A stretch of DNA of 64,000 nt from Mycobacterium sp. GTDB lineage: Bacteria; Actinomycetota; Actinomycetes; Mycobacteriales; Mycobacteriaceae. The position numbers and the translations under genes were made by a program. The stretch's first letter is position 1. Each line of letters begins with the position of its first letter. The stretch is from positions 68,526 to 132,525 of the forward strand of contig NZ_SCRH01000030.1 in the NCBI RefSeq assembly GCF_004298145.1, written 5' to 3'. The notes under the pieces were generated by a model, which was not told where the DNA came from, did no database searches, and saw only the letters and a list, made by a program, of their open reading frames with translations. This document shows positions 32,132-47,974 of the stretch, piece by piece.

Positions 32132-32677
32132 TCAACTGCCCTTGATGCCGACCGCGTGCCTCAGCTGCGCCAGGAACTGTTCGGCGTCGTCGCTGCGCAC
32201 GATGTAGTGCGAGATCGCGATCCGGATCACCGTCGCCGCTTTCACCGCGGCGTTGGGTCCGGGGAGGTGCCGTTGCAGGCCTTCGCGCATCTGCGGGATG
32301 ACCCAGGAGAACTGGGCGATGGTGTGCTCGGGCTCGACGTCGACCATGCGCACCCCGGAGTACGAATGCTGGTAATCGACGATGAAGCGCAGCACGGCGT
32401 CCAGCTTGTCCACGCCCTTGAGGCCCGCGGTGGCCTTGATCAGGCCGCTTTCGAAGATCTGTCGCTCGTAGCTCGAAAACGCCGACAGCAACTCCTCTTT
32501 GGAGGCGAACCAGCGGTACAGCGTCGGGCGGGAGACGCCCGCCTGGGTGGCCACGTCGGACAGGCTGAGCTTGGTCTTGCCGTTTCGGCCGAGCACCTCG
32601 GCGGTGGCCGCCAGGATGCGCTGACGGGTCGAGGTGTCGGTGTCGGCGATCGTCGCCGCCCGGGCCGGCTGGCTCAT
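32132..32677 (-). CDS. TetR family regulator (candidate regulator of the catabolic block)
   Basis: RQRILAATAEVL...LSLSDVATQAGVSRPTLYRWFASKEELL. Confidence 0.92.
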   Translation of the reverse strand: MSQPARAATIADTDTSTRQRILAATAEVLGRNGKTKLSLSDVATQAGVSRPTLYRWFASKEELLSAFSSYERQIFESGLIKATAGLKGVDKLDAVLRFIVDYQHSYSGVRMVDVEPEHTIAQFSWVIPQMREGLQRHLPGPNAAVKAATVIRIAISHYIVRSDDAEQFLAQLRHAVGIKGS

Positions 32678-32719
32678 GATGCACGCTTTACGAGGTGTGT
32701 CATGGTTTTCGCCTCCACG

Positions 32720-33541
32720 TTAGGCCCGAGGGGGGCGCCGGCGCACCAGCACCGACTGCTGGATGGCGCCGACCGCGCCCTGCTCGTCGAACAATGTTCC
32801 GATCGTCGTCCCGATCCCGTCCGGCCCGTAGCTGGTCTCCGCCCGGATCCCGATCCATTCTCCGTCGGGGACACGAAATACGTGCACGGCCAGATCGGTG
32901 TTGAGAAACGTCCACTTGGTGATGTCGAGCTTGCTGCCGATGCCGTTGGCGCAGTCGGCCACCGCGAACAGCCGTTCCAGCTGGGTCATGGACTCGCCGT
33001 TGACCAGATCGACCGTCGGGCTGATCCACGATTCGCCGGGGCCTTCGCTGAGCGGCTCGGTCAGCCACAGCCACTGGAGACTGTGCACGTAATTGCGGTC
33101 CCAGTCCCTCGCCTTGAGGTTGCGGTCGTAGGCCTCGGTTCGGGGACGGGGCAGGGGGGCCGACGCGTGCGCCAGCACCCGCGTGTCCTGGTGCTGCAAC
33201 CGCCAGCCGCTGGCGCGCGCCACCGGCCGGGCGCCGCCGTCGGGGCCCGGGGCCAGCATCTCGGCGCTGACGAGTTCGATCTGCTTGCCGGGGCGCTGCA
33301 CGTGGGAGCGCACCCAGAGGTCACCCTCGGCCGGCACCCCGCCCAGCAGGTCGATGACGACCCTCGACAGGCGCGTGTCGTCGCGCTGTTCGCACCGCTG
33401 AAGCGCCCGCACCAGCAACGCCGACACCGGACCGCCGTGCTGGATCGCCGCCGACCAGGTGCCGCGCGCCAGATCGGTCGCCCGGAACTTCTCACCCGGC
33501 GCGTCGGCCGGGTCGATCAGCTCGTAGTAGGCGTCGGTCAT
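32720..33541 (-). CDS. Double-hotdog thioesterase family protein
   Basis: GTWSAAIQHGGPVSALL, ADCANG, FLNTDLAVH, W.G......GPDGIG; start ATG 33541 or TTG 33547. Confidence 0.85.
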   Translation of the reverse strand: MTDAYYELIDPADAPGEKFRATDLARGTWSAAIQHGGPVSALLVRALQRCEQRDDTRLSRVVIDLLGGVPAEGDLWVRSHVQRPGKQIELVSAEMLAPGPDGGARPVARASGWRLQHQDTRVLAHASAPLPRPRTEAYDRNLKARDWDRNYVHSLQWLWLTEPLSEGPGESWISPTVDLVNGESMTQLERLFAVADCANGIGSKLDITKWTFLNTDLAVHVFRVPDGEWIGIRAETSYGPDGIGTTIGTLFDEQGAVGAIQQSVLVRRRPPRA

Positions 33542-45552: not shown

Positions 45553-47054
45553 ACGACATTTCGGTCGGCATCATCGGCGCCGGCCCCGGCGGCCTGGCGC
45601 TGGGAATCATGCTGTCACGTAACGGGTTTGGCAACTTCACCATCTTCGACCGGGAAGACGGCGTCGGGGGCACCTGGCGGATCAACACCTACCCGGGACT
45701 CGCGTGCGACGTCAAGTCGCACCTCTACTCGTATTCCTTCGACCTGAACGCCCACTGGTCACGGCTGTGGTCGGGACAACCCGAGATCCTGGACTATTTC
45801 CAGCGAAGTGTCGATAAGTACGGTCTGCGGCCGCACCTGAAGCTGCGCACCGAGATTTGCGCGGCACACTGGGATCCGGATACCCAACTATGGTGCCTGA
45901 CCACCCCGGCCGGCGAACGGCATCACTTCAACGTCGTCGTGTCGGCCGTGGGCCTGTTCACCCGGCCGCTGCTCCCCGAACTCATCGAACAAGAGCCGTT
46001 CACCGGAACGGTGATGCACTCGTCGCGCTGGGACCACTCGATCCCGCTGGAAGGCAAACGGATTGCCGTGCTGGGTACCGGATCTACCGCCGCCCAGCTG
46101 ATCCCGGAATTGGCCAAGGTGGCCGACAAGGTGTATTCGGTGCAACGATCGGCGACCTGGATACTGCCCAAGCCGGACCGGCACTACACACGGCGGGAGC
46201 GCTGGGCCTTCGCGCACCTCCCGTTCGCCAAGAAGCTCTACCGGACCCGGCTGTGGCTGCGCAGCGAATCCAACGTCTCGGTGATCGAGCACGGCAGCGA
46301 AAAGACCGAGCAATTCACCGCTGTCGCACTGGGACTGCTCGAGAGGACCGTCGACGATGAGGAATTGCGCCGCAAGCTCACACCGGATCATCCGATGGGC
46401 TGCAAGCGGCTGGTGTTCTCCTCGGACTACCTGTCCGCACTGACCCGGCCCAACGTCGAGGTGGTGACCAGCGCGGCGCGCTACCTGCGCGCCCGATCCC
46501 TTCTCACCGAAGACGGCACCGAACGCGAGGTCGACCTGGTGGTGTGCGCCACCGGCTACGCCGCCGCCGACTATCTCGGGGAACTGGACGTGTCCGGCGA
46601 ACACGGAATCACGCTGCGGCAGGTCTGGCGCGACGGGGCGCACGCCTACCTCGGCATGGCGGTGCCGGGCTTCCCAAATTTCTTCATGCTGTACGGGCCG
46701 AACACCAACGTCGGCTCCAACAGCGTCATCTTCATCCTCGAAGCCCAGGCACGCTACGTCGTGCGGGCGCTGCGCTACCTGCGGCGCAACCGCAAGCGCT
46801 ACGTCGCGGTGCGTCCCTCGGCGCTGGCCGATTTCGTCGCCAAGATCGACCGCTGGATGGCGGGTACCGTGTGGACCACCCAGTGCAGCAACTACTTCCG
46901 CGCTCCCAACGGGCGAGTGGTCACCCAGTGGCCGCGTAGCGCGCGTACCTTCTGGGGAATGACGCGCAGGTTCAGGCCGGCCGATTTCCGCTTCGAAGCG
47001 CCCGCCATCCCCGTCTCGGCCGCGGCCGCCGCGCGCGAGCGGGGCACGCGATGA
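45549..47054 (+). CDS. Type I Baeyer-Villiger monooxygenase
   Basis: GAGPGG, GGTWRINTYPGLACDV, fingerprint FTGTVMHSSRWD (FxGxxxHxxxW), GTGSTA, ATGY. Confidence 0.92.
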   Translation: MNDISVGIIGAGPGGLALGIMLSRNGFGNFTIFDREDGVGGTWRINTYPGLACDVKSHLYSYSFDLNAHWSRLWSGQPEILDYFQRSVDKYGLRPHLKLRTEICAAHWDPDTQLWCLTTPAGERHHFNVVVSAVGLFTRPLLPELIEQEPFTGTVMHSSRWDHSIPLEGKRIAVLGTGSTAAQLIPELAKVADKVYSVQRSATWILPKPDRHYTRRERWAFAHLPFAKKLYRTRLWLRSESNVSVIEHGSEKTEQFTAVALGLLERTVDDEELRRKLTPDHPMGCKRLVFSSDYLSALTRPNVEVVTSAARYLRARSLLTEDGTEREVDLVVCATGYAAADYLGELDVSGEHGITLRQVWRDGAHAYLGMAVPGFPNFFMLYGPNTNVGSNSVIFILEAQARYVVRALRYLRRNRKRYVAVRPSALADFVAKIDRWMAGTVWTTQCSNYFRAPNGRVVTQWPRSARTFWGMTRRFRPADFRFEAPAIPVSAAAAARERGTR

Positions 47055-47974
47055 CGGAGCCGGACGGTGCCGATCGCTTCGACCCCGCGCTGCGCGCGGC
47101 CGCGAGCATGCGCACCGACTTTTCTTCGGCCGCAATCCAACTCACCCGTGGACCGTTCGACGAACGCCGCCGTCTCACCGCCGGGCAGACCGATGCGCGC
47201 GAGGTCCGGATCGCCGAGGACAACGCCGCCGGCGTCGGGGTGCGCATCTATCGCGGCGGGCCCGAGCCGGCGCCGGTCGTTGTTTATTGCCACGCCGGCG
47301 GTTTCGCGCTGGGAAACCTCGATACCGATCACCGCCAGTGTGTGGAGCTAGCCCGCCGCGCCCGCTGCACGGTGGTGTCGGTGGACTATCGGCTGGCGCC
47401 GGAACACCCCTATCCGGCCGCGCTCGAGGACGCGAGCGCCGTGCTGCGCTGGGTGGCCGCCGACGCGGCCGCGCTCGGGGTGGATCCGGCACGACTGGCC
47501 GTCGCGGGCAGCAGCGCCGGCGCCGCCCTGGCCGCCTGCCTGACGCACGGCGCCGCCGACGGCTCGTTGCCGCCGGTGGCTTTTCAGCTGCTGCACCAGC
47601 CGGTGCTCGACGACCGGGCCACCCCGTCGAAGGCGGAATTCCGCACCAGTCCCGCCTTCGACGGCGAGGGCGCCGACCTGATGTGGCGCCACTACCTGGG
47701 CCCGGCGGCCGGGTCGGCGGCCATGGTGCCCGCCCGGCGAACCGGATTTGCCGGTCTACCACCGGCTTTGATCACCTGCGCCGAGATCGACCCGTTCCGT
47801 GACGAGGCCATCGACTATGCGCAGCGGCTACTGCACGCCGGAGTCTCGACCGAGCTGCACGTGTTTCCGCGCGCCTGCCACGGCTTCGATTCACTGCTGC
47901 CGGAATGGCCCGGCTCGCAACGATTGTTCGCGCTGCAGGGCCACGCCCTGTCGTGCGCGTTGCACGGCGGCTAA
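47051..47974 (+). CDS. HSL-family esterase/lipase (alpha/beta hydrolase)
   Basis: HAGGF oxyanion motif, VDYRLAPEHPYPA, GSSAG nucleophile, DPFRDE, HGF. Confidence 0.9.
   Translation: MTEPDGADRFDPALRAAASMRTDFSSAAIQLTRGPFDERRRLTAGQTDAREVRIAEDNAAGVGVRIYRGGPEPAPVVVYCHAGGFALGNLDTDHRQCVELARRARCTVVSVDYRLAPEHPYPAALEDASAVLRWVAADAAALGVDPARLAVAGSSAGAALAACLTHGAADGSLPPVAFQLLHQPVLDDRATPSKAEFRTSPAFDGEGADLMWRHYLGPAAGSAAMVPARRTGFAGLPPALITCAEIDPFRDEAIDYAQRLLHAGVSTELHVFPRACHGFDSLLPEWPGSQRLFALQGHALSCALHGG

Follow-up and report, generated by a model that had tools for sequence, protein, structure and literature searches.

A genome-unique 30-nt element before two operons of a mycobacterial P450/Baeyer–Villiger monooxygenase gene block suggests a TetR-linked catabolic regulon

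A 64,000-nt stretch of a Mycobacterium sp. genome (assembly GCF_004298145.1, contig NZ_SCRH01000030.1; the whole stretch is referred to below as the window) carries a 16-kb block of 18 genes (32132–47974) between the genes of an Rv0161-like FAD oxidase and an adhE1-like zinc alcohol dehydrogenase (Zn-ADH). Two rightward operons of this block are preceded by the same 30-nt element, which occurs nowhere else in the genome, and we consider it moderately probable that the block is a single catabolic regulon, linked to a TetR regulator and directed at a hydrophobic alcohol, ketone or lipid. From its sequence and conservation, the block appears to be a real, ancient, co-regulated and apparently uncharacterised variant of a familiar actinobacterial oxidative cluster. 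No description of the cluster was found in the literature that could be searched, which, together with the element shared by the two operons, agrees with an earlier note on this DNA that had regarded the block as one, probably uncharacterised, unit. What is new here is the regulatory element; the enzyme families themselves are ordinary.

The 30-nt element and the operons it precedes

Genes were called as open reading frames (ORFs) backed by the G+C content at third codon positions (GC3), and their products were scanned against Pfam and NCBIfam. A leftward unit (34937 down to 32132) encodes an SRPBCC-like protein, a lactonase-like protein, a thioesterase and a TetR regulator. A rightward unit (~35070–38062) encodes a TesB-like thioesterase, an F420-dependent luciferase-like oxidoreductase (LLM) and an acyl-CoA dehydrogenase (ACAD). 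Next come the DUF427 gene, which points leftward, the gene of a family III CoA-transferase, which points rightward, and, after 134 nt, a nine-gene plus-strand operon (40144–47974) encoding a 196-aa protein, a NIPSNAP-like protein, a cytochrome P450, a medium-chain dehydrogenase/reductase (MDR), an HpcH/HpaI-type aldolase, a SnoaL-like protein, a short-chain dehydrogenase/reductase (SDR), a Baeyer–Villiger monooxygenase (BVMO) and a hormone-sensitive-lipase (HSL) family esterase. The genes of this operon are separated by gaps of 1–17 nt or overlap by 1–19 nt, depending on the start codon chosen. The ORF and domain scans bore out the gene block that the earlier note had placed between the Rv0161-like gene and adhE1; its gene list, which sums to 18, was also confirmed, and the count of 17 in its title was not.

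The element is bipartite (TTTACAAAT-N8-AAGTGTCACGCTG) and both copies lie on the plus strand. Copy 1 (TTTACAAATCCTACTCAAAGTGTCACGCTG, 35005..35034) is located in the divergent region before the thioesterase–LLM–ACAD operon, and copy 2 (TTTACAAATTTCGCCAGAAGTGTCACGCTG, 40025..40054) lies 16 nt past the CoA-transferase stop codon, before the nine-gene operon. Two copies were counted in the window and none in any of 100 shuffled versions, and the same two were the only ones in the 6.1-Mb genome with up to three mismatches allowed. The parts of the element include TTTACA and TGTCACGC; the -35-like TTTACA is separated from CACGCT by 17 nt, of which the last two are TG.

The halves of the element were invariant at both sites in nearly every orthologous locus, and the sequence around them drifted freely, as did the N8 of site 2. 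Across the genus, the element was detected in 195 of 251 genomes (148 of the 193 high-quality ones) and a reversed control in none; in the genomes with positions listed, the copies mostly clustered within 5–26 kb. In rearranged species (G360, G201, G500 and G031), the element was located before NIPSNAP–P450, MDR–HpcH–SDR–BVMO–esterase, ACAD or thioesterase genes. In G031, 4.5 Mb separate the hydroxylase module from the MDR-to-esterase module, and the element is found at each. Divergent orthologs of the block TetR (60–82% identity) adjoin the element at a distance of 15–30 nt in the variant loci of G360, G201 and G031.

A degenerate third copy (CTTTACAAAACACCGAAAAAGTGTCATGCACCGC, 34416..34449, plus strand), in which the -10-like half is mutated to CATGCA, is located by the lactonase gene. 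Comparable sites (TTTACAAAACACG...AAGTGTCACGCTC) were found between the SMP-30/gluconolactonase/LRE-like (SGL) gene and the NIPSNAP gene in G201 and G360, and the third copy looks like a relic of such an order, with the lactonase gene divergent from a NIPSNAP–P450 operon. Another candidate operator, a 9-bp palindrome (CTATGCACC-N16-GGTGCATAG) between the DUF427 and CoA-transferase genes, was rejected, being kept in only 6 of 80 loci.

A regulon was understood as a set of units preceded by a specific shared cis-element that is conserved across species and travels with the genes, and this is what was observed. Because the element is genome-unique and conserved, precedes the modules after rearrangement or splitting and abuts the TetR ortholog, the block most likely represents one regulon. 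The block TetR (32132..32677, minus strand; TetR_N, 50 bits), encoded by the last gene of the leftward unit, is the likely regulator and a candidate repressor of this set. The element may serve as a promoter, an operator or both.

Distribution, history and variable content of the block

A scan of a genome collection with the block P450 yielded 80 loci from named slow-growing species and soil metagenome-assembled genomes, with P450 identities of 80–97%. The lineages represented were M. colombiense, M. mantenii, M. arosiense, M. scrofulaceum, M. parascrofulaceum, M. nebraskense, M. interjectum, M. heidelbergense, M. paraffinicum, M. gordonae, M. asiaticum and M. intermedium. A tblastn comparison of all block proteins with these loci revealed the same genes in the same order beside adhE1, mce1R and fadD5, so that in the cluster-conservation check proposed by the earlier note the block proved syntenic across the 80 loci and not scattered there. 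In an even sample of the Genome Taxonomy Database family, 20 of the 22 congeneric genomes carried the NIPSNAP-like marker. Outside the genus, two genomes of one other genus carried the marker at 84–85% identity and two of a second at 26%, and it was not found in the remaining sampled genera, which confines it to 3 of the 34 genera sampled. The distant 26% homologs had no neighbours in common with the block.

The two genomes of the genus that lack the marker in this sample carry traces of the block. In G212, the Rv0161-like gene, TetR and adhE1 are present, TetR being the sole block gene kept. G124 retains the TetR, lactonase, thioesterase and 196-aa genes, with the NIPSNAP through esterase genes gone, the LLM gene broken into three frames and ACAD reduced to a 76-aa stub. 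G485 has an empty site at which the Rv0161-like gene directly adjoins adhE1. Given the syntenic presence throughout the genus, the scars in G212 and G124 and the empty site in G485, we take the block to be ancestral to the genus Mycobacterium (slow growers), vertically inherited, retained by this M. avium-complex-like genome and deleted in some lineages. The earlier note had described the block as inserted, and the TetR-only G212, the frameshifted LLM gene and ACAD stub of G124 and the clean G485 site indicate that this was the wrong direction of change.

None of the marks of a horizontally acquired island (an integrase or transposase, a tRNA or repeat at the edge, deviant composition, patchy distribution) was observed. 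The GC content was 0.66–0.69 within the block and outside alike and GC3 was 0.81–0.92 throughout. No tRNA was found in the window, no repeats at the block boundaries, no integrase or transposase domains among the 18 block products in the domain scans, and no Rfam families matched in 31000–50000. The absence of an integrase and of terminal repeats and the host-like codon style given by the earlier note were thus upheld by the domain and repeat scans and by GC and GC3.

The content of the block varies around a constant core composed of thioesterase–LLM–ACAD, DUF427, CoA-transferase, the LmbE-like 196-aa protein, NIPSNAP, P450, MDR, aldolase and SDR. The SRPBCC and SnoaL genes were among the least consistently retained, the former missing in 26 of 59 full-length loci. 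The operon tail consists of BVMO and esterase, of esterase alone, or of a protein that looks, as a judgement from sequence only, like a member of the enolase superfamily. Of 67 informative orthologous loci, 20 had no BVMO gene or only a remnant of one, and on the locus tree the gene switches between presence and absence at least 14 times. Among the species without it were M. arosiense and other relatives in the M. avium complex (MAC). Because remnants were detected in L017, L032 and L058, the repeated change is a loss and not a gain.

In several species, the BVMO–esterase tail is swapped for a 397-aa protein of this MR/MLE-like appearance (L025:14162-15355, L056:13767-16275, L078:14117-16649), followed in L056 and L078 by a protein that resembles iron-type alcohol dehydrogenases, again judged by sequence. 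The enolase-like tail, the lactonase and the aldolase together hint at hydroxy-acid chemistry. A sugar-acid route (dehydrogenase, lactonase, dehydratase, aldolase), considered because of these tails, was set aside as no dehydratase is present in the window.

The variant regulons L095:9964-14863 (G031) and L090:14155-15435 (G360) contain a second P450 with 26–27% identity to that of the window, of which the window genome has no ortholog (best match 50%). In G031, the gene of this second P450 is followed by one for a 70-aa single-cluster ferredoxin, and a WS/DGAT acyltransferase gene is located after the NIPSNAP–P450 pair. The second P450, ferredoxin and WS/DGAT acyltransferase of the variants hint at long-chain lipid-like substrates.

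A compact form of the block was noticed in a 4.4-Mb genome (L104, G423:C1:3557001-3577000), where NIPSNAP, P450, MDR, aldolase, SDR and BVMO genes lie by adhE1. The locus also matched DUF427, the lactonase and two thioesterases, and gave no match to the esterase, CoA-transferase, LLM, ACAD or 196-aa gene. No element copy was detected in G423 within two mismatches, and since the genes are there without the element, the motif-based prevalence of 77% underestimates gene presence. In L104 and in L084 of G212, both from 4.4-Mb genomes, no match to the probable mce1R was found between the Rv0164-like gene and fadD5.

Genes of the block and its flanks

The catalytic motifs of the P450, BVMO, esterase, SDR and aldolase are intact in the translated ORFs. 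The first gene of the nine-gene operon (40144..40734, plus strand, as are all genes of this operon) encodes a 196-aa protein, or 187 aa from the likely ATG at 40171. An AlphaFold2 model based on a 40-sequence ortholog alignment reached pLDDT 72 and pTM 0.68 (pLDDT 39 for a single-sequence model), and a Foldseek search with it returned Dbv21, MshB and LnmX (E 5e-5 to 1e-4, TM ~0.5). The zinc motif is degenerate, its position reading ASAVDV where the superfamily has AHPDDE alongside HxxH, and there was no Pfam PIG-L match and no match of the profile to Protein Data Bank (PDB) sequences. The protein has an LmbE/PIG-L-like predicted fold and is probably not an active metallo-deacetylase. Members of this family (homologs with 42–46% identity) are encoded by the first gene after an element copy in the window, G360 and G031. 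The second gene (40739..41443) encodes the 234-aa NIPSNAP-like protein (PF07978, 27 bits), the most conserved product of the operon (85–97% identity), which is single-copy in the genome and had no match among PDB sequences.

The cytochrome P450 (41440..42681; likely ATG at 41461, 406 aa) scored 73 bits with PF00067 against a cut-off of 22.8 and displays the hallmarks of the superfamily, namely the heme-thiolate loop FGRGQHFCIG, EXXR as EIVR and the I-helix acid–alcohol pair in GGTET. It shared 94–96% identity with proteins from M. intracellulare, M. paraintracellulare and other Mycobacterium isolates and 89% with the M. avium protein, and none of the ~71 further P450-like genes in the same genome exceeded 31% identity to it. 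The best relatives in the structural database were CYP125 (E 6e-41) and CYP130 (E 4e-40), with which it shares the conserved heme and oxygen-activation motifs. Assignment to either family was rejected, as the identities of roughly 33% and 30%, read by eye from HMMER alignments (an ancestral sequence in the case of CYP125), lie below the 40% family rule.

Downstream of the P450 gene, 42683..43651 encodes a divergent, polyol-dehydrogenase-like MDR (PF00107 and PF08240; motifs GVCGSD and HE) that lacks the structural-zinc cysteines and had a best PDB match of 2e-15. The HpcH/HpaI class II (pyruvate) aldolase (43662..44420; PF03328, 100 bits against a cut-off of 25) matched HpcH/HpaI entries of the PDB, including 6r62 ('hydroxyketoacid aldolase', 6e-33), and contains the motifs DAQH, VVRLP, MIET and GPADL, which place it in this class; the His/Arg and Glu/Asp residues in them presumably have the catalytic and metal-binding roles, respectively, of their counterparts in HpaI. 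The aldolase was rejected as an ortholog of HpaI (4-hydroxy-2-oxoheptanedioate aldolase), its TIGR02311 score being 125 bits against a cut-off of 369. The SnoaL_4 (NTF2-like) protein is encoded at 44417..44827 (PF13577, 72 bits) and a classical SDR with TGAAGGQG and YGSSK motifs at 44824..45552 (PF13561 and PF00106).

The 506-aa product of 45534..47054 is a type I BVMO, since it contains FxGxxxHxxxW[P/D], [A/G]GxWxxxx[F/Y]P[G/M]xxxD and two Rossmann GxGxx[G/A] motifs, here in the forms GAGPGG, GGTWRINTYPGLACD, FTGTVMHSSRWD and GTGSTA. Its PDB matches were CHMO, STMO and PAMO at 1e-54 to 1e-62. The operon ends with the HSL esterase (47051..47974; PF07859, 215 bits), assigned to this family by the HAGG oxyanion motif, the GSSAG nucleophile and the DPFRD and CHGF triad contexts.

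In the leftward unit (all minus strand), the 158-aa product of the first gene (34461..34937) matched Polyketide_cyc2 (SRPBCC) with an E of 0.003, too weak to pass the cut-off. The next genes encode a putative lactonase with an SMP-30/gluconolactonase/LRE-like beta-propeller (33561..34442; PF08450, 163 bits), whose true start is probably the ATG at 34388, and an acyl-CoA thioesterase with a double hot-dog (32720..33547; 4HBT_3 and 4HBT_3C). At E 1e-6, the TetR protein had no match to solved structures except a weak one to Mce3R (residues 10–67, E 6e-7).

In the rightward unit, Pfam and NCBIfam identified a TesB-like acyl-CoA thioesterase II (34953..35960, plus strand). It likely starts at the TTG at 35070, behind a conserved Shine–Dalgarno sequence, as the conservation footprint keeps GAGAGGTGGAG and the TTG. 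The LLM (35966..36886, plus strand) belongs to the Rv2161c family and passed the curated TIGR03619 cut-off (264 bits against 166.9). The ACAD (36887..38062, plus strand; PF02770 and PF02771) has a divergent C-terminal domain, and its best NCBIfam match was PimC-like, far under the cut-off. The DUF427 gene (38050..38817, minus strand; PF04248, 106 bits) likely starts at 38742. The family III CoA-transferase (38840..40009, plus strand; PF02515, 389 bits) scored under the cut-offs of the NCBIfam succinate–glutarate, formyl-CoA and mesaconate transferases; the nearest named families act on dicarboxylates.

The left flank is the gene of the Rv0161-like FAD-linked, GlcD-like oxidase (30609..32048, plus strand; PF01565 and PF02913), which lies outside the regulon. 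An inverted-repeat search detected a hairpin with 24-nt arms and a 15-nt loop (32060..32122) between this gene and the convergent TetR gene, probably a bidirectional terminator. On the right, the adhE1-like gene (47971..49095, minus strand) is convergent with the operon; it was missing from 26 of 59 orthologous loci, and its place at the edge of the block is not taken here as membership in the regulon. The wider synteny fits what we take to be the H37Rv region Rv0153c–Rv0166, with ptbB-, fadE2- and pntAa/Ab/B-like genes and an Rv0158-like TetR upstream; on the downstream side lie Rv0163/0164-like genes and the probable mce1R and fadD5 genes. The two flanking genes are presumably adjacent in H37Rv, an arrangement analogous to the empty site seen in G485.

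Between the Rv0158-like TetR and the Rv0161-like gene (27785–30676), an alpha/beta hydrolase (minus strand), a protein with a DAP_DH_C-like domain and an SDR are encoded; we assume that PE3 and PE4 occupy this position in H37Rv. The ORF at 28334–29908 overlaps the hydrolase gene by ~400 nt, its true start being probably later, and this gene is fragmented in G124, G212 and G485.

Proposed function, related systems and rival explanations

In the mechanism that we favour, the element would be a promoter overlapped by an operator of the block TetR, and a ligand would release TetR and switch on the whole set. The P450 would hydroxylate a hydrophobic substrate using a ferredoxin encoded elsewhere, and the SDR or the MDR would oxidise the alcohol to a ketone. 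Where the BVMO is present, it would turn the ketone into an ester for the HSL esterase to hydrolyse, following the logic of sub-terminal oxidation. The lactonase and aldolase would process hydroxy-acid or 2-oxo-acid products, and the acids would be carried as CoA thioesters by means of the family III CoA-transferase, the ACAD and the two thioesterases. As for the substrate, we give about the same odds to a long-chain aliphatic lipid with an alcohol or ketone group and to an alicyclic or terpenoid compound; the 'cyclic or branched' substrate of the earlier note is no better supported than a long-chain aliphatic one.

Several observations weigh against such a regulon and pathway. No ferredoxin or reductase is encoded in the block, the nearest ferredoxin homologs lying on other contigs, and the Pfam and NCBIfam scans revealed no CoA ligase, enoyl-CoA hydratase, hydroxyacyl-CoA dehydrogenase or thiolase in it. 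The earlier note's view of a complete pathway was therefore abandoned, as the block contains no redox partner, CoA ligase or beta-oxidation core. The dispensability of the BVMO in many species and the variable operon tail weaken a fixed reaction order, and with the BVMO lost in so many loci and the tail swapped in others, the series P450, alcohol dehydrogenase, BVMO and esterase could not be retained as an obligate core. The aldolase, NIPSNAP, LmbE-like, DUF427, SnoaL and LLM proteins have no assigned step. The genome contains ~72 P450-like and 19 BVMO-like loci (tblastn) and similar mixes of families recur in it, and therefore composition alone is weak evidence. Finally, a simple sigma-70 scan did not call the element as a promoter, the element is no obvious palindrome, unlike most TetR operators, so that another factor could read it, and no copy of it precedes the DUF427 gene or the CoA-transferase gene.

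Among named systems, the mymA operon of M. tuberculosis (Rv3083–Rv3089, VirS-regulated) comes closest in composition; we take it to encode a flavin monooxygenase of the EthA/MymA type, an esterase of the HSL family, an SDR and a zinc-dependent MDR. Its genes are arranged as BVMO–esterase–SDR–ADH–Tgs–Tgs–FadD13, with a divergent gene for the AraC-type VirS. The mymA operon is likewise mycobacterial and is linked with lipids (PMC3544749), and a WS/DGAT gene joins the block regulon in variant species. The block differs in having no AraC regulator, WS/DGAT or FadD gene, in its TetR regulator and in its gene order, and it was not counted as a mymA operon. Half of the genes differ as well, the block adding a P450, NIPSNAP-like protein, HpcH aldolase, SnoaL, LmbE-like protein, lactonase, CoA-transferase, ACAD and LLM.

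Modules of sub-terminal alkane or ketone oxidation, such as acmA/acmB of Gordonia sp. TY-5 and mekA/mekB of Pseudomonas veronii, share with the block a secondary-alcohol dehydrogenase, a type I BVMO and an adjacent alpha/beta-hydrolase esterase, the BVMO and esterase genes of the block overlapping by 4 nt. These modules consist of two to three genes and act on short ketones, whereas the pair in the block is the dispensable tail of a nine-gene operon. The likeness to the chn/cpn and cam ring-opening pathways is looser and concerns the sequence of hydroxylase, dehydrogenase, BVMO and hydrolase and the lactonase-like gene; the block BVMO matched CHMO, STMO and OTEMO at 1e-50 to 1e-62. However, its matches to CHMO-type PDB entries were split in two stretches, the best covering about residues 4–217. 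In addition, the hydrolase of the block is an HSL esterase, typical of linear esters, there is no aldehyde dehydrogenase, and the P450 is unrelated to P450cam-type families at the family level.

EthA/EthR pairs also combine a flavin monooxygenase with a TetR-family regulator, but the block TetR is encoded 13 kb from the BVMO and the gene set is much larger. The nearest paralog pair of BVMO and TetR in the genome was found in a mini-cluster on another contig (C50:17022-21604), in which a TetR gene (51%) is divergent from the gene of a 448-aa protein and is accompanied by a BVMO (46%), a 152-aa ORF and an SDR-like ORF. The BVMO and TetR genes lie ~1.5 kb apart with one ORF between them and no 30-nt element, and they could be an EthA/EthR-like pair. 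Looser clusters were noticed at C50:143910-163294 (lactonase, 39%; CoA-transferase, 38%; LLM, 44%) and C8:52627-80731 (CoA-transferase, 35%; P450, 28%; esterase, 49%; and the ACAD paralog with 64% identity).

Among the rival explanations, remodelling or recycling of the cell's own envelope lipids in the manner of mymA deserves the most attention. The block would then act on long-chain keto or secondary-alcohol lipids (e.g., keto- or wax-ester-mycolate chains), possibly together with the neighbouring mce1/fadD5 genes; in this lineage it adjoins a probable mce1R and a probable fadD5, both named by their Rv0165c/Rv0166-like positions in the synteny. Its BVMO, HSL esterase, SDR and MDR belong to the four families that we assume for Rv3083–Rv3086, and the WS/DGAT gene of the variant loci would presumably correspond to Rv3087/88. 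The regulator, however, is a TetR and not an AraC/VirS protein, the gene order and extra genes are unlike those of mymA, and the linkage with mce1 is not kept in G031, G201 and G360. The mymA operon plays a role in mycolate composition and affects fatty acids as well (PMC3544749), which favours the explanation. Against it stands the absence of the BVMO in M. arosiense and other MAC relatives. These species presumably share the MAC mycolate pattern, and the confinement of the marker to so few sampled genera also fits poorly with wax-ester mycolates, which we believe to occur in fast growers too. For the same two reasons, synthesis of wax-ester mycolates by the block BVMO was judged unlikely. 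Overall, envelope remodelling is an improbable explanation, yet one with a real chance of being right. A narrower proposal appears still more doubtful, namely a turnover, specific to slow growers, of long-chain keto or secondary-alcohol lipids that may be their own (keto- or wax-ester-mycolate chains, 2-alkanols) or host-derived, with a lipid-sensing TetR, an undescribed operator and a BVMO of the EthA/MymA clade that would also oxidise thio-compounds in the M. avium complex.

TetR control, the environmental lineage (soil metagenome-assembled genomes) and the combination of SRPBCC, SnoaL_4 and NIPSNAP-like proteins with a BVMO and a P450, typical of the tailoring of aromatic polyketides, could also be explained by TetR-gated detoxification of a polycyclic xenobiotic or antibiotic, with tailoring-type enzymes, including an ABM/NIPSNAP-like barrel, a ketoreductase and a lactonase, run in reverse. 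This seems unlikely: the enzymes under the same element include a CoA-transferase, an ACAD and a pair of acyl-CoA thioesterases, which indicates acyl-CoA metabolism; the block encodes no efflux pump; and its SRPBCC and SnoaL genes belong to the least consistently kept ones. A patchwork, in which unrelated accessory genes without a shared pathway happen to lie side by side, would fit the variable tail, the frequent absence of the SRPBCC-like and adhE1 genes, the DUF427 and CoA-transferase genes lacking the element and the many similar clusters of the genome. We regard it as about equally unlikely, given a shared element that is unique in the genome and stays before the same modules after rearrangement or splitting, and a set that is lost or decays as a whole. 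A recently acquired island, inserted between the Rv0161-like gene and adhE1, would explain why genes adjacent in some genomes (G485) are 16 kb apart here, but it is hardly credible in view of the host-like GC and GC3, the lack of an integrase, tRNA and flanking repeats, the same site in ~80 species and ~90% of the sampled genus, and the deletion scars in genomes without the block.

The TetR-linked catabolic regulon thus remains the preferred interpretation. With dozens of comparable P450/BVMO loci in the genome, the finding is useful more than surprising. The element offers an experimental handle to the inducer and hence to the substrate, usually the hardest step for orphan P450/BVMO clusters, and the repeated loss of the BVMO constitutes a natural experiment on which steps are dispensable. 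Most slow growers, including the M. avium complex, carry the block and some small-genome lineages have deleted it; being retained widely and deleted in small genomes, the block would therefore mark a metabolic capacity tied to an environmental or opportunistic lifestyle.

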